UHGV virus genome: UHGV-0160030 | Origin: a virus | DNA: 40,988 nucleotides | Reading direction: 5' to 3' (one strand) | Shown: positions 16,551-33,637 of the stretch, piece after piece | Numbering within the stretch: the stretch's first letter is position 1 | Layout: every line of letters begins with the position of its first letter | Position numbers and translations under genes: made by a program | Notes under the pieces: generated by a model | Told to the model about the DNA's origin: nothing | The model's input: the letters and a program-made list of their open reading frames with translations, nothing else | Databases searched by the model: none

Positions 16551-16990
16551 AGCCTCACCTCCGCAGCGAACGGATGGCGTAGTTATAAGGGGAGCGAAAA
16601 AGAAAGAATGCGCGATTGCGCAATATGGTAACGTCAGGGTATTATCCACTGGCTGAATAGATCACTTCACGTTTTTTGTTCCTTGCCGCCCGTATCCATA
16701 TGCGGGCTTTTTTTTGCATGTAAAAAGGCCCCAACACATGTGCGTGGGGCCTGAGAGTATACATGGTTTCAGTCAACTGCATGGTGCCGGGTGCCTCCCG
16801 GTGAATTCAGTACCAGCACCTGAATCCGCGATTATCCCATATACCTACTCGCTGATTGCCCCTCCGCACAGGGGGATTCACCATGCCAGTTTCTTTTAAC
16901 AAACTCCCCGCAAAACAGACAACTGTCAACCGTCTGAATTGTGAGACATTTAAAAAAAGGCCCGCAAAAGCGAGCCGGGAAAAATAAGTC

Positions 16991-17067
16991 TGGCGCGTTG
17001 TACTGGATTCGAACCAGTGACCGATTGCTTAGAAGGCAATTGCTCTGTCCGGTTGAGCTAACAACGC
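16991..17067 (-). tRNA. tRNA-Arg (anticodon UCU)
   Basis: Hand-folded cloverleaf: acceptor GCGTTGT/ACAACGC, anticodon loop CUUCUAA, T-loop TTCGAAT, CCA encoded. Confidence 0.8.
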
Positions 17068-17080
17068 AGGGTACAGATAA

Positions 17081-17157
17081 TGGACCGCCATCGAGGACTC
17101 GAACCCCGCGCAACCAGCTTCGAAGGCTGGCGCTCTATCCTGATGAGCTAATGGCGG
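17081..17157 (-). tRNA. tRNA-Arg (anticodon UCG)
   Basis: Hand-folded: anticodon stem CCAGC/GCTGG, loop CUUCGAA, T-loop TTCGAGT, 3' CCA; exact 5' end uncertain by 1 nt. Confidence 0.7.
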
Positions 17158-17164
17158 TATGTGA

Positions 17165-17240
17165 TGGTGGCCCTTGCTGGATTTGAACCAGCGACCTGGC
17201 GATTATGAGTCGCTCGCTCTCACCACTGAGCTAAAGGGCC
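17165..17240 (-). tRNA. tRNA with anticodon CAU (Ile2 lysidine-type or Met), resembles E. coli ileX
   Basis: GGCCCTTTAGCTCAGTGGT...CTCATAA...GGTTCAAATCC...CCACCA. Confidence 0.75.
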
Positions 17241-23220: not shown

Positions 23221-23411
23221 GGACGCACCTCCACCGTAGTTACGTATTTAACCGGGCTACCTTTCATTGAGATGGTTTCACACATCTCTGCCGCTTTCAG
23301 TTCCGCTGTTTTTCTGGATTTATAGCGACGGTGCCAGACAGATACATCCGTGCGAACTGATACATCGTTTCTGTATTCCGTAGTGGAGATGATGATTTCG
23401 TAACTAATCAT
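23217..23411 (-). CDS. Hypothetical protein (64 aa)
   Basis: ORF with coupled overlaps. Confidence 0.45.
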   Translation of the reverse strand: MISYEIIISTTEYRNDVSVRTDVSVWHRRYKSRKTAELKAAEMCETISMKGSPVKYVTTVEVRP

Positions 23412-23959
23412 GGGCGAACCTCCTTGTCAGAACCATTCAGCCTGGAATCAACAAGTGCAGCGCCAAAAACAGCATCACCAACACGGTCGTACAGTTTGCT
23501 AGCCAGCGGAGATTCAACGGCCTTAAGCATTGGATAAAGCTGGCTTGTCCAGATTTGATGGATTTCACGCAAATGCAGGTATACGCCTCTGGCGTTTCGT
23601 GCGACAGCTGACATATCAGACGCATCGGCACCTGATAAACTCTTCTCCATCAGGTTAAAGGCGTTGATGTATGCCTCTTTGAACCGGGCAGCACGTTTAC
23701 CAGTGAAGCCCATGGCAAGGAACGCGAAGCCATCGCGGGTGATTTGATAGCAAGGTAGTTTGCGGCCTGATGCGTCGGTGTATTCACTTAACACAAAATT
23801 GTGTTCAGTAAATTCAGCGGAACATTCGAGGTTTCTAATTCTATCTAAAACCCGCTCATGCCGTTTAGTAAAGTAATTAGCTACTGCAAGAGATGTGGTG
23901 ACAACGCGACCATTGATAATCGTGATTTCAGGGTGAGATTGGGTTGGGAGAGTAGTCAT
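23408..23959 (-). CDS. Phage regulatory protein Rha family
   Basis: ITIINGRVVTTSLAVANYFTKRHERVLDRIRNL...ITRDGFAFLAMGFTGKRAARFKEAYINAFN typical Rha signature; start moved to ATG 23959 (MTTLPTQ...). Confidence 0.7.
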   Translation of the reverse strand: MTTLPTQSHPEITIINGRVVTTSLAVANYFTKRHERVLDRIRNLECSAEFTEHNFVLSEYTDASGRKLPCYQITRDGFAFLAMGFTGKRAARFKEAYINAFNLMEKSLSGADASDMSAVARNARGVYLHLREIHQIWTSQLYPMLKAVESPLASKLYDRVGDAVFGAALVDSRLNGSDKEVRP

Positions 23960-24129
23960 GGTGACAGCCCCTATGTTGAATTCAATGAACTCACCACCAA
24001 GGCTTTCCACGACCATATAGGTGGTGAGACGTACAGGGGTGGAAATACCGGTCAACATAGAACCCGGCCCAACCGAAGTTGGCCCTGCACGCCCCACCAT
24101 AATTTGGGCGTAACGATGCTCATGACACG

Positions 24130-24150
24130 AAAAAACCGCATGAGCGCGGT
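24130..24150 (-). terminator. tR1-like intrinsic terminator in the early rightward operon
   Basis: plus strand aaaaaaccgcatgagcgcggt; minus transcript ACCGC-gcucau-GCGGU followed by U6. Confidence 0.55.
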
Positions 24151-24370
24151 TGTGCTCTATATTGAATTTCGGGTTTCCACGCCCGGCACCCGCTTTATAA
24201 GGTGCCTGAGCAGTGTAACGTCCCGGAATTGCAGAATCAATATTTGGTCTTGAAATGATCATATAGCTGCTGATATCTTTAGAACTGTTCTTGGATGTTT
24301 CGGAGCCGTTTTATGCGAAACAGCTCCCCGTTATTGATGTTGAGTGAGCCGGGTTACTCCCGGCTTTTTT

Positions 24371-25078
24371 TCATCGCTGCCAACCAATAACCTGAAATAA
24401 CCCCATTTTCGGGTGATACCAGCGAGTCCCTCGCGGTTCTGCTTCCTCCATAACCCGATAAAAAGCAGCCATAAACGGTTCCACAGCAACAATTGCGCGA
24501 CGTGACAACAATCCGTCCGGCGTCATGAACTCATGGGTGTCTGTAGGAATCTGATAGGCGTTCACCAGATTGCGGCATTTATCATCTGACAAACCGGTTT
24601 TTGCTTTCAGTTGGCGATATCCGGCATAGCCCTCACGAATAGTGCCCTTTTTAATTTGCTCGACTGTTTCAGCAACGTGGCTGACTTTTTCTTCCACCTG
24701 AGTGATCCGTTTCTGTTGGCGAACGGCTTCAAGAGCCATCGCGGCAACCATTTCGATTTCGCTCATTGGCTTACGGATCTGTTCTTCCAGTTCGCGCCAG
24801 CGATCTACCAGGCGAGCAGTGAATTCAGGGCAGAGCTGTGCGACGACAATGATGCTGTCGCGCTTACCTTGTTCTCCTTCAAACAGGTAATGCTCATATT
24901 GAACTTTAAAACCTAAGTTATTGATTTTCTCGGAAACAGCCATTGGCGGTTTCCGGATGATGTTTTTAGCAACCAGGCGTTCGATACTACGTTTAACATC
25001 TGAGTGCTGACTACCCACCAGCTCTGCGATCTCAACGCTGGTCATGGATGCTTTGTCGTTAAAAATTGCGGTGTTCAT
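24371..25078 (-). CDS. Antirepressor-like regulatory protein (Rha/AntA-type N-terminal domain)
   Basis: 235 aa; N-terminal MTSVEIAELVGSQHSDVKRSIERL; ATGA overlap with the upstream small ORF. Confidence 0.6.
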   Translation of the reverse strand: MNTAIFNDKASMTSVEIAELVGSQHSDVKRSIERLVAKNIIRKPPMAVSEKINNLGFKVQYEHYLFEGEQGKRDSIIVVAQLCPEFTARLVDRWRELEEQIRKPMSEIEMVAAMALEAVRQQKRITQVEEKVSHVAETVEQIKKGTIREGYAGYRQLKAKTGLSDDKCRNLVNAYQIPTDTHEFMTPDGLLSRRAIVAVEPFMAAFYRVMEEAEPRGTRWYHPKMGLFQVIGWQR

Positions 25079-25302: not shown

Positions 25303-25413
25303 TCTTTAGTCTCACACCAGATACTTTGTTATCCAACGATGTTAACCACAGGAACCCAAAGTATCAAGAAATTCTGTTACTTTAGTATCAACAGCCATGA
25401 GAGGAGAAGAAAA
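25303..25413. promoter_or_regulatory. Right operator/promoter region (divergent PR/PRM-like) with CCAAAGTATCAA-type operator motifs
   Basis: GTATCA at 25361 and 25385, inverted partial copy at 25320; 12-mer CCAAAGTATCAA at 25356 repeated at 26095. Confidence 0.55.
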
Positions 25414-26070
25414 ATGAAGTCTTTAGGTGAACGTCTCATCAACGCACGGCAAAAAGCTGGGTTAACACAAGATGCGTTGGCTAAAAAAGCTGGGGTCACC
25501 AGAGTTGCAATCAGTAAAGCCGAGCAAGGCCTTACAAAAAGTTTCAACGGTGACACCCTTTTTAAAGTTGCAGCTGCACTGCAGTGTTCACCGCAGTGGC
25601 TTCAGAACGGAGATGAAAAAGATAAGCATTGGGAAAATAATGTTAAGAGCTGCCCACAGAGAGACACAGCATACTCTTACCCTGTAATTAACTGGGTTCA
25701 GGCAGGATTATTCGCAACTTCTGGTGATGACTACAACATGTATGATCAGGATAATTGGAGGCATTCTGTAAAATACGCTGGTGAGAGGGGGTTCTGGCTG
25801 GAAGTGCACGGAGACTCAATGACTTCGCCCGTAGGAATAACATTTCCTGAAGGAATGTCGATCCTTGTCAACCCAGATAAAGAAGTTTTTTCAGGGTGTT
25901 ACGTCATCGCCAGAAAAAAATCCACCAATGAAGCAACATTCAAAAAATATATTTCTGACATGGGAAAGGCGTTTCTAAAGCCCCTTAATCCACAATATCC
26001 AATCATAGAAATGGACAATGATTGCGAAATAGTAGGTGTTGTGGTTGATGCCAGGTGGGATATTTTCTAA
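25414..26070 (+). CDS. cI: CI-type repressor: N-terminal HTH plus C-terminal S24 (LexA-like) autopeptidase domain
   Basis: 218 aa from ATG 25414 with GAGGAG RBS; HTH LTQDALAKKAGVTRVAISKAEQG; Ala-Gly cleavage site; GDSM serine motif. Confidence 0.85.
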   Translation: MKSLGERLINARQKAGLTQDALAKKAGVTRVAISKAEQGLTKSFNGDTLFKVAAALQCSPQWLQNGDEKDKHWENNVKSCPQRDTAYSYPVINWVQAGLFATSGDDYNMYDQDNWRHSVKYAGERGFWLEVHGDSMTSPVGITFPEGMSILVNPDKEVFSGCYVIARKKSTNEATFKKYISDMGKAFLKPLNPQYPIIEMDNDCEIVGVVVDARWDIF

Positions 26071-28940: not shown

Positions 28941-29129
28941 ATGAACATTTATTTCAGAATAGTTATATCACTGGCAATTATCGCATGTATTTACGGATTG
29001 CTCGTCCCGTTTCTGATATCAATGAAGGATACGGTAGCGGTGATTTCTGGCTTTGCACTGACGTTTCTAACCCCGCCATGTATTTATACCATTTATAAGG
29101 GGCTTTCTTTCACTAAGGATAAAAGATGA
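28941..29129 (+). CDS. Small two-transmembrane-helix protein (62 aa), coupled to SPFH gene
   Basis: AGGAGG RBS; two hydrophobic helices; stop overlaps start of next gene (ATGA). Confidence 0.65.
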   Translation: MNIYFRIVISLAIIACIYGLLVPFLISMKDTVAVISGFALTFLTPPCIYTIYKGLSFTKDKR

Positions 29130-29953
29130 AAAAAATTATTTTTTCTTTAGCCATTGTTCTGCCTGCCATTGGCCTTGTCGGTTGTGATCGTGTTGAGCCT
29201 GGTAATGTGGGCATCAAAGTCAACAAACTTGGCGACGACAAAGGCGTCGGTGAAGTGGTCGGTGTTGGTCGCTACTGGACAGGCTGGAACACTGAAGTTT
29301 ATATCTTCCCGACCTTTAAGCAGATGAAGACCTACGATGATCCATTCAGTTTCCAGATGAGCGATGGAACAACCATTGGTTACCACATCGGAGTAGCCTA
29401 CAAGGTTGATCCATCCAAAGTTACCACAGTCTTTCAGACCTACCGCAAAGGCGTGGACGACATTACCGACACCGACCTGCGCCAGAAGATAGCCGACGCA
29501 CTCAACCGACTGGCCAGCAAAATGACCACCGACAAATTTATCGACGGCGGCAAGTCTGAGCTGCTGGATGCAGCTCTTAAAGACATTCAGGAAGAAATGA
29601 CGCCCATCGGTATTCAGGTAATAAGCCTCTCATATGTGGGTAAGCCGGAGTACCCGCCTACTGTTATCGACAGCATTAATGCCAAAGTCACGGCGAACCA
29701 GAAAACTCTGCAACGCGAGCAGGAAGTAAAACAGCGCGAAGCGGAAGCCAACATGTTGCGCGCGGAAGCTGCCGGACAGGCTGATGCGATTCGCACAAAA
29801 GCCCAGGCTGAAGCCGATGCTATTCGTTTACGCGGTGAAGCTCTGCGTCAGAACCCCGGTGTTATGGAGCTGGAAGCCATCAATAAATGGAACGGCACGC
29901 TGCCGCAATACATGACCAGCGGTGCCAATACACCATTTATCCAGGTTAAATAA
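29126..29953 (+). CDS. SPFH/band-7 (stomatin/prohibitin/HflKC-like) domain lipoprotein
   Basis: 275 aa; signal peptide with lipobox LVGC; coiled-coil Ala/Glu/Gln-rich C-terminal region typical of SPFH proteins. Confidence 0.7.
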   Translation: MKKIIFSLAIVLPAIGLVGCDRVEPGNVGIKVNKLGDDKGVGEVVGVGRYWTGWNTEVYIFPTFKQMKTYDDPFSFQMSDGTTIGYHIGVAYKVDPSKVTTVFQTYRKGVDDITDTDLRQKIADALNRLASKMTTDKFIDGGKSELLDAALKDIQEEMTPIGIQVISLSYVGKPEYPPTVIDSINAKVTANQKTLQREQEVKQREAEANMLRAEAAGQADAIRTKAQAEADAIRLRGEALRQNPGVMELEAINKWNGTLPQYMTSGANTPFIQVK

Positions 29954-30798: not shown

Positions 30799-31035
30799 AT
30801 GGGCAATGTGATTCAACTGGCTCCCAATGAATGGGTTTGTGAAAGCGTTCTTATCGCAATTACCGGGCTCAAACCAGGCACAATTCTTCGGGCCCGGAAA
30901 GAATGCTGGATGGTTGGAAGAGAGTATATTCACGTATCACCAGACGGTAATCCAAAGCCTTCCAGTGAATGTATGTATAACAGAAAAGCAATAGATGCCT
31001 GGGTCGCCTCAATGAAAAACAAACAACCCAGGTGA
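30799..31035 (+). CDS. xis: Excisionase-like small protein
   Basis: 78 aa directly upstream of integrase, same strand; GAGG RBS. Confidence 0.6.
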   Translation: MGNVIQLAPNEWVCESVLIAITGLKPGTILRARKECWMVGREYIHVSPDGNPKPSSECMYNRKAIDAWVASMKNKQPR

Positions 31036-31090: not shown

Positions 31091-32404
31091 ATGGATAAAG
31101 TCAAATATCCAACAGGCGTCGAAAACCACGGCGGCACATTACGCATCTGGTTTAATTTTAAAGGTAAACGTGTCAGGGAAAATCTTGGTGTCCCTGACAC
31201 TGCCAAGAACAGGAAGATCGCCGGGGAACTGCGGACATCAGTATGTTTTGCCATCCGCACAGGAAGCTTTGATTATGCTGCACAGTTCCCTGACTCCCCC
31301 AACCTTCAGGCTTTTGGGGTAAGTAAAAAAGAAATTACGGTGAAGGAACTTGAAGAAAAGTGGCTGGATCTGAAACGAATGGAAATCTCTGCAAATGCAT
31401 TCAATCGCTATGAATCCGTTGCAAGAACGATGGTTCCGAAAATTGGAGGCAGTAGACTGGTGTCATCGGTAACCAAAGAGGAATTGCTGTATATCAGGAA
31501 AGATTTGCTTACCGGGTATCAGAATTCAACGAAAAACAAAGCAGCAGCAAAAGGACGGAGCGTCGTTACTGTAAATTATTACATGACGACAATCGCTGGA
31601 ATGTTTCAGTTTGCTGCAGATCACGGTTACTTAGAAGCAAATCCCTTCCAGGGAATTAAGCCTCTTAAAAGAGCCAGGGCAGAGCCAGATCCGCTAACTC
31701 GTGACGAATTTATTCGCCTGATAGATGCTTGCCGACATCAGCAGACGAAAAACCTGTGGTCATTGGCTGTGTACACAGGAATGCGTCACGGTGAACTGGT
31801 CTCCCTGGCCTGGGAAGATATCGATCTGAAGGCAGGAACAATTACCATCAGGCGCAATTATACGAAACTTGGTGAGTTCACTCTACCGAAAACTGAAGCA
31901 AGCACAAACAGGGTTGTGCACCTTATCCAGCCCGCTATCAGTGTCCTGAAAAATCAGGCTGAAATGACAAGACTGGGTAAGCAGTACAACATCAAGGTGC
32001 AACTACGTGAATATGGACGTTCAGTGAACCATGAATGTACTTTCGTGTTTAACCCTCAAGTGGTTAGAAAAAGCGAACAGGTAGGTTTTGTCTACAAAGT
32101 CGATTCTGTAGGTGACTCATGGGAAACAGCCATTAAGCGTGCAGGGATCAGGCATCGAAAGGCATACCAGTCACGACACACTTATGCGTGCTGGTCATTA
32201 TCTGCCGGAGCAAACCCAAGCTTCATTGCCAGCCAGATGGGCCATGCAAGTGCCCAGATGGTATTCAATGTATACGGAGCATGGATGACTGACAGCAATG
32301 CAGAACAGATCGCAATGCTGAATCAGAAGCTGACAGATTATGTCCCAATGATGCCCCATAGTCACCAAAGTGACACCAGAGGCTTATTAAAATCAGTAAG
32401 TTAA
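31091..32404 (+). CDS. int: Tyrosine integrase
   Basis: 437 aa; GGAGG RBS; C-terminal catalytic region with R...H..R...Y spacing (HRTYACWSLSAGANPSFIASQMGHASAQMVFNVYGAW). Confidence 0.85.
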   Translation: MDKVKYPTGVENHGGTLRIWFNFKGKRVRENLGVPDTAKNRKIAGELRTSVCFAIRTGSFDYAAQFPDSPNLQAFGVSKKEITVKELEEKWLDLKRMEISANAFNRYESVARTMVPKIGGSRLVSSVTKEELLYIRKDLLTGYQNSTKNKAAAKGRSVVTVNYYMTTIAGMFQFAADHGYLEANPFQGIKPLKRARAEPDPLTRDEFIRLIDACRHQQTKNLWSLAVYTGMRHGELVSLAWEDIDLKAGTITIRRNYTKLGEFTLPKTEASTNRVVHLIQPAISVLKNQAEMTRLGKQYNIKVQLREYGRSVNHECTFVFNPQVVRKSEQVGFVYKVDSVGDSWETAIKRAGIRHRKAYQSRHTYACWSLSAGANPSFIASQMGHASAQMVFNVYGAWMTDSNAEQIAMLNQKLTDYVPMMPHSHQSDTRGLLKSVS

Positions 32405-32630
32405 TCCTTAATACCCGTCATGTTAACTGCGTGATACGGGATTTTTAAAAATCACTAAAGAACGCCCAAGAGCATGTGTTTTCTTTAGAATAATCAAAGC
32501 GTTGGATTGCCATGTCATATGAAAATCGGCAAAGTTCATATGTAACAAAGTGTCCCAATCATGCCCCAAAATGCCCCACAACAAATATTTTTGCCCCATG
32601 CATGCCCCAAAAAATCACTTTCCCTCACCC
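32405..32630. other. attP region
   Basis: Located at int 3' end as in lambda; contains direct repeats and a hairpin after int; core not definable without a host sequence. Confidence 0.45.
32551..32610 (+). repeat. Four to five direct copies of (A)TGCCCCA, candidate arm-type integrase/accessory factor binding sites
   Basis: atgcccca at 32561, 32571, 32602; tgcccca at 32592; degenerate tgtccca at 32551. Confidence 0.6.
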
Positions 32631-32680
32631 TTGACACTGTTTATCTATACAGTTAAAAATAACACTGTATACAAACACAG
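32631..32680 (+). promoter_or_regulatory. Sigma70-like promoter (TTGACA -35) with two tandem LexA boxes
   Basis: CTGTTTATCTATACAG at 32637..32652 and CTGTATACAAACACAG at 32665..32680, both CTG-N10-CAG. Confidence 0.8.
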
Positions 32681-32695
32681 TATAGAGGGACTTTT

Positions 32696-32944
32696 ATGCG
32701 TATTGAAATCTGCATAGCCAAAGAAAAAATGACTAAAATGCCAACCGGTGCTGTGGATGCGTTAAAGGAAGAATTAACCCGACGCATCAGTAAACGTTAT
32801 GACGATGTAGAGGTGATCGTAAAAGCCACCAGCAACGATGGCCTTTCTGTTACGCGCACCGCCGATAAAGATTCAGCTAAAACTTTTGTTCAGGAAACTC
32901 TGAAAGATACCTGGGAGTCTGCTGACGAGTGGTTTGTTCACTAA
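32696..32944 (+). CDS. dinI: DinI-family protein (SOS-inducible RecA modulator)
   Basis: 82 aa; [27 protein letters not shown]...[16 protein letters not shown] closely resembles recalled E. coli DinI; AGAGGGA RBS. Confidence 0.8.
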
Positions 32945-33011
32945 TTAGCACGTAAAATCAGTAACAGCTGGAAATCATTCAATACTCGCACTATCGAAAG
33001 TTAACCAGCCA

Positions 33012-33050
33012 GCCGCAGTATCCTGTCATGACAAGTTACTGCGGCTTTTT
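33012..33050 (+). terminator. Intrinsic terminator after dinI (long GC stem around the palindrome tgtcatgaca, then T5)
   Basis: gccgcagtatcctgtcatgacaagttactgcggcttttt. Confidence 0.7.
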
Positions 33051-33061
33051 ACTTTTTATAT

Positions 33062-33349
33062 TTAACGGATCAACATCCAGATCAGCAGACACGCCACCAC
33101 CGGCACAGCAAAATCCATCAGGCTTGCCACATCCCATGCACGTGGATCAAAACCGCCCCACCACGGCATGTTAATCCGCTTGCCATGCCCGAACATTTCA
33201 ATCCAGCGATATTCTGCCTGGGTGTGTTCACGCGCAATGAAGAACGTACAACCGGCTATCGCCCCGTAAGCCCAGTTTCCGGTAAAAAGACCAGCCAGTA
33301 CCTGCACCGCCACGGCACAAAGCGCATGAAGTATCGACGTGATATCCAT
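33062..33349 (-). CDS. Predicted small inner-membrane protein (95 aa)
   Basis: AAGGGGAG RBS; hydrophobic segments; last gene of the tail-fibre operon. Confidence 0.55.
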   Translation of the reverse strand: MDITSILHALCAVAVQVLAGLFTGNWAYGAIAGCTFFIAREHTQAEYRWIEMFGHGKRINMPWWGGFDPRAWDVASLMDFAVPVVACLLIWMLIR

Positions 33350-33358
33350 CTGCTCCCC

Positions 33359-33637
33359 TTAAAACCACTCCCTGAGCGGGCGCTCTGGTGTAACCACCCA
33401 CTCACGGAACACGGATTCATCAAAGCCATCGTCAAGAAGACGAATATTAACAAAGTACCCTTCGTCTCGCGTGTATTCAGGCTCCCCGTCAGCAGAAACA
33501 CCTGACTCACTGAACGTAAAACCAATCTCATCAACCAGAACGGCATTCTGCAGCTCTTCGTCCTCTTCCCAGTTAAGTTTCCTGAGAAATGCCCTGAAAT
33601 CTGCTTTATCACTGAAACGCAACGTGAAATCTCTCAC
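33359..33637 (-). CDS. Hypothetical acidic protein (92 aa), possible tail fibre assembly/accessory protein
   Basis: GTG start overlapping stf stop (GTGA coupling); position of tfa in lambda but no sequence resemblance recognised. Confidence 0.45.
   Translation of the reverse strand: MRDFTLRFSDKADFRAFLRKLNWEEDEELQNAVLVDEIGFTFSESGVSADGEPEYTRDEGYFVNIRLLDDGFDESVFREWVVTPERPLREWF

Follow-up and report, generated by a model that had tools for sequence, protein, structure and literature searches.

A dinI-like cargo gene behind tandem LexA boxes beside the attachment site of a lambdoid phage

What does a lambdoid phage do with a dinI-like gene of its own, placed behind two LexA boxes directly beside the phage attachment site (attP)? 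This question is raised by positions 32,631 to 33,050 of the UHGV virus genome UHGV-0160030, a stretch of 40,988 nucleotides (nt) which was analysed in full and is called the window here, with all coordinates counted from its first letter. Our answer, which we consider likely as a whole, is that the locus represents an autonomous, monocistronic, LexA-controlled dinI moron, i.e., a mosaic cargo unit with its own promoter and terminator, whose product would damp late RecA-dependent cleavages. Taken alone, the last step is our best guess and is put forward tentatively: dampening of the late cleavages of the repressor CI and of UmuD would raise the threshold of induction or delay induction and mutagenesis.

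The dinI-like coding sequence occupies 32696-32944 on the plus strand and encodes 82 amino acids (aa), with a Shine-Dalgarno motif, GAGGGA, read from the sequence at 32685-32690 on the same strand, 5 nt before the ATG. The protein matched the Pfam family DinI (PF06183) with 70.9 bits against a gathering cutoff of 24.2 (E-value 1.1e-19, profile positions 1-63 of 63), PHROG 189 'RecA filament binding protein DinI' with an E-value of 5.7e-31 (profile positions 71-149 of 151), and the E. coli DinI structures 1GHH/7YWA in PDB with an E-value of 3.7e-13 (residues 1-81 against 1-79; 49% identity by sequence comparison). Since homology to a solved structure extends over the full length, family membership is settled, and the DinI-family gene proposed in the initial annotation is borne out by the PF06183, 1GHH/7YWA and PHROG 189 matches. 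For the NCBIfam equivalog NF007893 of DinI, the score of 73 bits stays below the cutoff of 111, hence the RefSeq name 'DinI-like family protein', and judged by these comparisons the phage protein is a paralogue, not an orthologue, of chromosomal DinI. The chromosomal E. coli protein belongs to the same fold family, aligns over the full length and is LexA-controlled, as predicted for the phage gene, whereas in the phage protein two residues are inserted after K9 and another two near residue 60, and the 'GH' insertion is lacking.

In the cryo-electron microscopy structure of the RecA-DinI complex, L13, L21, W71, W77 and F78 of DinI build a hydrophobic pocket for RecA F203, and E24, E69 and D76 form an acidic patch contacting RecA (PMC9926225). 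Alignment with E. coli DinI placed M15, L23, W73, W79 and F80 of the phage protein at the pocket positions and E26, D71 and E78 at the acidic positions, so that all eight RecA-contact residues are either identical or conservatively substituted. This conservation provides well-founded grounds to infer that the phage protein would bind RecA filaments.

Regarding the expression of the gene, the promoter scan revealed a perfect -35 consensus hexamer, the TTGACA already noted in the initial annotation, at 32631-32636 on the plus strand, followed after an 18-nt spacer by the -10 hexamer AAAAAT (32655-32660, plus strand), together giving 10 of 12 consensus matches; an alternative -10 hexamer, TAAAAA at 32654-32659 on the same strand, goes with a 17-nt spacer. 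The two tandem LexA boxes that had been placed at 32637 and 32665 were confirmed, as the CTG-N10-CAG palindromes CTGTTTATCTATACAG (32637-32652) and CTGTATACAAACACAG (32665-32680) both fit even the stricter pattern CTGT-N8-ACAG. Three occurrences of this stricter pattern were counted in the window (0.48 expected), none of 100 shuffles reached three, and the count does not depend on any weight matrix. The proposed scoring of the boxes with a position weight matrix was carried out with a symmetrised matrix, for which 29 published LexA sites of E. coli served as the training set and whose absolute bits are approximate. Box 1, the 20-mer CACTGTTTATCTATACAGTT at 32635-32654, reached 22.3 bits and is the top site of the window, and box 2, the 20-mer CACTGTATACAAACACAGTA at 32663-32682, reached 20.3 bits, both above the training median of 19.2 bits, with 17.0 bits for the best site among 30 shuffles. 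Considering that the third-best site of all 40,988 bp has 13.7 bits and lies inside the integrase gene int, boxes 1 and 2 are the sole credible LexA sites in this 41-kb phage, and the matrix scan of the whole window returned no further LexA-controlled gene, e.g., an SOS-controlled antirepressor. A search for the consensus 20-mer TACTGTATATATATACAGTA with up to three mismatches gave no match, because each box departs from it at four mostly peripheral or central positions.

Box 1 fills the spacer between -35 and -10. The predicted transcription start is covered by box 2, which starts 3 nt past the -10, and the box centres are 28 bp apart (direct-repeat family D4, spacing 28, in the repeat search). 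Hence, the operators overlap the core promoter and the predicted transcription start, and on the approximate matrix their scores fall among those of proven E. coli sites; from this we infer repression by LexA in vivo.

The operator pair is also retained in relatives. Two sites of at least 15 bits were found at unchanged offsets in all 56 IMG/VR loci having at least 70 nt of upstream sequence, and where these loci vary, the changes mostly spare the CTGT/ACAG arms. Paired boxes at -61 and -33 were likewise retained in 1720a-02, PhiR12_2, P-EibC and BP-4795, the DinI-like proteins of which are 60-80% identical, and overall the operators persist across relatives with 60-94% protein identity, including the weaker box pairs of BP-4795 (14.7 and 15.6 bits) and Stx1_499 (15.2 and 17.9 bits). 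A single box was present in a Klebsiella relative with 68% identity, and a clade of 77-aa proteins is characterised by one strong box, located at about -39 to -35 (Gifsy-1, mEp237, Klebsiella and Aeromonas phages; 41-51% identical). Compared with its chromosomal counterpart, the phage copy is distinguished by two strong operators, by being phage-borne and by a variable copy number; chromosomal E. coli dinI has one LexA box. For Salmonella dinI, one strong and one very weak LexA box are described (PMC8072944).

The gene and its promoter form part of a discrete unit. Megablast against phage records detected homology with mEp460, cdtI, 2H10, SKA5, CP-1639 and dozens of Shiga toxin (Stx) phages, both Stx1 and Stx2, starting at window positions 32627-32631, i.e., at the -35, and usually ending at 33015-33018 inside the terminator stem. 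Across 80 IMG/VR loci with 99-100% identical protein, the promoter, both boxes, the gene and the 3' untranslated region (UTR) are constant, and the sequences upstream of the -35 and past the first arm of the hairpin are variable. Moreover, in mEp460 and 1720a-02 the cassette stands behind a different, shorter integrase gene (1098 nt, ~365 aa; Rci-like in mEp460). The unit has its own promoter, its own terminator and discrete mosaic boundaries with unrelated flanks, and because it stays constant while the flanks differ, the cassette from the -35 to the terminator is, by its architecture, a textbook case of a moron; the cargo status claimed in the initial annotation is supported by where the mosaic homology breaks off, at the -35 on one side and inside the terminator stem on the other.

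The strong terminator that had been noted at the end of the gene was recovered at 33011-33059 on the plus strand, forming the right edge of the cassette. It consists of a 10-bp stem with an inner helix (33011-33046) and a subsequent U-run, TTTTTACTTTTTAT, and the hairpin folds with -19 kcal/mol (123-nt context -29 kcal/mol, z -3.7). The automatic terminator scan reported no terminator here, probably due to the interrupted stem or the long apical region. At the same place, distant relatives carry their own, different terminator hairpins.

Between the stop codon of dinI and the terminator lies the 66-nt 3' UTR (32945-33010, plus strand), in which no open reading frame (ORF) of at least 20 aa was found. 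The unit is therefore monocistronic, and a hidden downstream antirepressor in the manner of the Gifsy prophages is ruled out. We also considered the 3' UTR as a known or structured RNA and rejected this, since an Rfam search gave no match at E-values up to 1 and the UTR is kept only among close relatives (>90% protein identity), with unrelated sequence 3' of dinI in P-EibC, PhiR12_2, BP-4795, 1720a-02 and Klebsiella P18-100; conservation confined to near-identical cassettes reflects recent common descent. Some defective prophages without dinI retain, at their ends and unannotated, only the last ~70 nt of the cassette (window 32949-33018, comprising the UTR and the first terminator arm), such as the Qin prophage end beside ydfJ' in E. 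coli NCTC10973 and a ybhB-side prophage end, and these fragments are probably deletion remnants.

The cassette is widespread. At least partial matches were found in 3162 of 5426 complete E. coli genomes, 1590 of which showed a coverage of at least 80%, and a single genome has up to eight matching places, so the dosage can vary widely. The element is already known as a common, annotated cargo of E. coli lambdoid phages. Proteins 100% identical to that of the window are encoded by mEp460 (gp21, YP_007112095.1, 'RecA filament binding protein DinI'), SKA5 and PhiR40_1, and mEp460, cdtI, SKA5, PhiR40_1 and many Stx1/Stx2 phages share the same promoter, both LexA boxes, the 3' UTR and the position between int and the tail-fibre genes. 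The promoter is annotated in the mEp460 record, whereas the LexA boxes are unannotated in the records of mEp460, cdtI, SKA5, PhiR40_1 and the Stx phages. The window differs from mEp460 in its integrase and in its terminator hairpin. What our analysis adds to this picture is small and comprises the conserved two-operator layout of the E. coli clade of 82-aa proteins, the precise boundaries of the cassette, and the monocistronic state of this clade, unlike the Gifsy clade, on a phage with a repressor of the RecA-cleavable type, the CI examined being that of this window only.

The position beside attP, also part of the initial annotation, could be specified when the window was compared with the two prophage junctions of E. 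coli JNEC-KY173 (NZ_AP045169.1): all three share an 11-bp core, TTAACTGCGTG, at window positions 32423-32433, 19 nt past the int stop codon and 198 nt ahead of the -35 of dinI. Matches to E. coli chromosomes begin at window position 32411 or 32423 and abut a truncated yecE beside yecD, and at the opposite prophage end of the same genome int is fused to the remainder of yecE. The prophage is thus integrated in host yecE, on the downstream side of yecD. Counted from the yecD side of the lysogen, dinI comes first among the prophage genes, and its transcription runs inward. There, yecD and the 5' yecE fragment point into the prophage toward dinI, and transcription reading through from the host could extend into the cassette without any need of the dinI promoter.

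The repressor of the phage is relevant for any role in induction. The CI-type gene lies at 25339-26070 on the plus strand, a mechanical ORF inside which the likely Met start of the CI reading frame is found, and its product combines HTH_3 (PF01381, E-value 9e-15) with a complete Peptidase_S24 domain (PF00717, E-value 4e-22). Owing to this domain combination, CI is presumably a self-cleaving repressor dependent on RecA.

Based on these features, the following course of events can be proposed. The cassette lies between attP and the tail-fibre genes of a lambdoid phage that integrates into yecE, in a region that would be non-essential. In the lysogen, dimers of host LexA would sit on both operators, one in the promoter spacer and the other at the transcription start, and thereby silence the gene. 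After DNA damage, RecA would be activated, LexA would undergo self-cleavage and transcription of the cassette would begin. The 82-aa product would then enter the groove of RecA filaments on single-stranded DNA, as chromosomal DinI does, a groove that also serves as the docking site for LexA, UmuD and lambda-type CI. Phage DinI would supplement the dose of chromosomal DinI, and the late, slow RecA-dependent cleavages, i.e., those of UmuD and of the phage's own S24-type CI, would be dampened, resulting in a higher damage threshold or in delayed induction and SOS mutagenesis. At high concentration, DinI inhibits both RecA-mediated UmuD cleavage (coprotease activity) and the recombinase activity of RecA, and at stoichiometric levels it stabilises the filament (PMC6590174). 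An effect on CI autocleavage or SOS mutagenesis, as suggested in the initial annotation, would fit the S24-type CI and the retained RecA contacts.

The Salmonella prophages Gifsy-1, -2 and -3 contain a LexA-controlled operon with a dinI homologue first, followed by a small antirepressor that triggers induction and by irsA, and their repressors are not cleaved (Lemire et al. 2011, PMC3121763). The Gifsy dinI homologues with a LexA box were induced 4.6- to 23-fold by nalidixic acid in the mapping of the Salmonella SOS regulon (PMC8072944), and a Gifsy DinI homologue accumulates as a protein after mitomycin C (PMC3121763), so that for Salmonella, published work already documents prophage dinI homologues under the control of LexA. 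The window resembles this arrangement in having a prophage DinI homologue directly behind a promoter that LexA represses or, in the window, is predicted to repress, with damage induction demonstrated for the Gifsy genes. However, the Gifsy proteins are only 42-44% identical and belong to the 77-aa clade, have one LexA box at -39 instead of two, and are encoded in the early/nin region instead of beside att; furthermore, an antirepressor gene follows Gifsy dinI, while the window unit has no downstream ORF, and the Gifsy repressors are non-cleaved, in contrast to the S24-type CI of the window phage. The absence of a downstream ORF and the complete Peptidase_S24 of CI exclude a dinI-antirepressor operon of the Gifsy type. 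A second known arrangement is Tum of phage 186, a LexA-controlled antirepressor with a DinI-like second (C-terminal) half (PMC3121763). Tum, which corresponds to split genes in PSP3 and Fels-2, belongs to the same PHROG 189 as the window protein, but it has 146 aa with an N-terminal antirepressor half, whereas the window protein comprises the DinI module only; with only positions 71-149 of the 151 PHROG 189 positions matched, an antirepressor-DinI fusion of the 186 Tum type is excluded as well. As a separate observation, the dinI homologue of Yersinia phage YeP1 has no LexA box directly upstream and is located immediately 3' of a 91-aa ORF, a gene order resembling PSP3/Fels-2 (antirepressor, then DinI) and not Gifsy.

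Other elements restrain RecA with unrelated proteins. Plasmid PsiB is a sequence-unrelated functional analogue that restrains RecA-mediated cleavage. Hex of phage 434 (PMC3564112) offers a functional analogy as a small element-encoded protein limiting the RecA coprotease on repressors, but it is unrelated in sequence to the window protein and is made in the lysogen from the PRM transcript, not from an SOS promoter. That phage DinI limits the induction of Stx phages is already in print as speculation (PMC8456039), and when the literature was searched for experiments on the function of a DinI-like protein from an E. coli phage, no such test turned up, only annotation-level mentions and speculation.

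Several points weigh against the explanation proposed here. The -10 hexamer is weak in either form (AAAAAT or TAAAAA), the score below the equivalog cutoff means that functional equivalence with true DinI is not guaranteed, and the stabilisation of filaments by DinI at stoichiometric levels could favour cleavage. Additionally, non-polar deletions of dinI in Gifsy-1 and in Gifsy-3 did not significantly alter the level or rate of induction (PMC3121763), although this result is not directly transferable because the Gifsy repressors are non-cleavable.

Alternative explanations have to be weighed on the same evidence. The moron architecture, whose own promoter and terminator make expression independent of the lytic programme of the phage, together with the very wide distribution of the cassette in E. 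coli chromosomes, is also what would be seen if the gene served lysogenic conversion to the benefit of the host: extra DinI, which blocks UmuD cleavage (PMC6590174), would limit UmuD cleavage and SOS mutagenesis or toxicity, and lysogens would better survive DNA damage, e.g., by quinolones, with the cassette retained for the advantage it gives its carrier. In an association study, the gene groups linked to newly arising quinolone-resistance mutations in E. coli included a DinI-like gene from a viral region (PMC10575684), but this evidence is correlative, and chromosomal dinI already supplies the activity. We regard the host-benefit explanation as possible yet rather unlikely, bearing in mind that it overlaps with damping of late cleavages and is not exclusive of it.

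Less probable still is that phage DinI acts as a positive effector of induction. At near-stoichiometric levels it would stabilise RecA filaments, sustain or speed up CI cleavage and commit the prophage once damage is deep, a scenario for which we see little likelihood. DinI does lengthen and stabilise RecA filaments (PMC9926225, PMC6590174), and the presence of two strong operators suggests that the gene is not expressed before LexA has been substantially depleted; nevertheless, DinI takes groove elements that lambda CI needs, which makes competition structurally expected, and induction was not lowered in the Gifsy dinI deletions (PMC3121763).

The silence of these deletions could also be taken as a sign that the gene is a near-neutral passenger with little or no effect, left over from a dinI-antirepressor operon of the Gifsy type or a fusion of the 186 Tum type after loss of the antirepressor. 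An antirepressor gene follows dinI in the Gifsy-type 77-aa clade (PMC3121763), no ORF of at least 20 aa precedes the terminator in the window, and defective prophages, Qin-like ones among them, still have truncated 3' ends of the cassette at their termini. Against this stands that proteins diverged to as little as 60% identity still come with an intact ORF, both operators and a terminator, even with differing terminator sequences, and that the RecA-contact residues are invariant or conservatively replaced; their retention despite divergence indicates purifying selection and renders a mere remnant very unlikely.

PHROG 189 unites DinI with Tum-like proteins, and in the Gifsy phages, 186 and PSP3, dinI is associated with antirepressors under LexA control (PMC3121763), which might suggest that the window protein is itself an antirepressor or has a target other than RecA, e.g., the repressor of a co-resident prophage. 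However, the alignment is limited to the DinI half of PHROG 189 (positions 71-149 of 151), Tum is inferred to be an antirepressor fused to a DinI-like half, and in PSP3 the upstream non-DinI gene is the antirepressor (Lemire et al., PMC3121763); with the RecA contacts retained and the phage's own CI of the self-cleaving type, we give this idea hardly any credence. Finally, that the palindromes are chance matches or serve attP/Int function is the least credible option of all: they do lie ~200 bp from the att core and near TGCCCCA repeats, but they score above the median of genuine sites with no shuffle close, travel with dinI beside the unrelated integrases of mEp460 and 1720a-02 and not with this attP, and overlap the core promoter exactly, with homology starting at the -35.

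If phage DinI tunes the RecA coprotease, the antibiotic inducibility of lambdoid prophages (Stx phages included), toxin release and SOS mutagenesis in lysogens would be affected, and even a modest effect would be widespread, as the cassette is at least partly present in over half of the complete E. coli genomes, sometimes in many copies. The sole direct test of a phage dinI was made in Gifsy phages, with induction unaffected (PMC3121763); the combination of a stand-alone dinI with a repressor of the cleavable type makes the 82-aa clade, not Gifsy, the right place to test a tuning of induction. More speculatively, and in our view improbably, the double operator might delay phage DinI until LexA is deeply depleted, so that the protein would emerge during cleavage of the slow substrates, UmuD and S24-type CI repressors, and in polylysogens the combined dose from up to eight copies might act in trans as an SOS damper that sets the induction threshold of co-resident prophages with cleavable repressors (those of Stx phages included) as well as the level of SOS mutagenesis. 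If true, such a shared SOS damper would constitute a dosage-based crosstalk between prophages, distinct from the antirepressor crosstalk of Gifsy.

Upstream of attP and on the same strand as dinI, a tyrosine integrase is encoded at 31091-32404 (plus strand; Pfam Arm-DNA-bind_2 and Phage_integrase), preceded by an excisionase (DUF1233) at 30799-31035 on the plus strand. In the P' arm, 32561-32612 (plus strand), ATGCCCCA(A/C)AA occurs three times and is joined by a fourth TGCCCCA (repeat families D2 and D3). The TGCCCCA repeats lie outside the conserved dinI cassette, with the last one ~20 nt from the -35, and are plausible candidates for arm-type Int sites; Stx1_499 and BP-4795 likewise carry the ATGCCCCA motif a short way upstream of their dinI promoters. 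Int binding and the activity of the dinI promoter could thus interfere with each other. On the other side, convergent with dinI, two small conserved ORFs at 33062-33637 on the minus strand code for a hydrophobic protein of 95 aa (PHROG 1443) and a protein of 92 aa (PHROG 1361), and the side tail fibre gene is located beyond them.

Further features were observed elsewhere in the window. In the early-left region between immunity and xis/int, an SPFH/Band 7 lipoprotein-like gene (29126-29953, plus strand) may be another cargo gene. Within the mechanical ORF 23408-24262, Rfam detected a C4 antisense RNA (82 bits) and the Hfq-binding RNA isrK (62 bits) at 24017-24205 on the minus strand, immediately upstream of a Phage_pRha (+Ash) coding region, and a second Rha-family gene is present at 24371-25078. 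This region has no LexA box and looks like an RNA-controlled antirepressor or regulatory module of the P1/P7 c4-ant or Gifsy-1 IsrK type in the early operon. Furthermore, a match to the small RNA STnc100 with 140 bits (16716-17240, minus strand) lies beside three tRNA genes, in a late-gene regulatory region typical of Stx/phiP27-like phages. Among whole phage records, PhiR49_2 (PV340570.1) gave a partial match to the window with ~95-97% identity, and the cut of this record at the att core corresponds to the prophage permutation. The tail and tail-fibre part of the window is nearer to PhiR40_1, and the early region and heads are nearer to phiP27.

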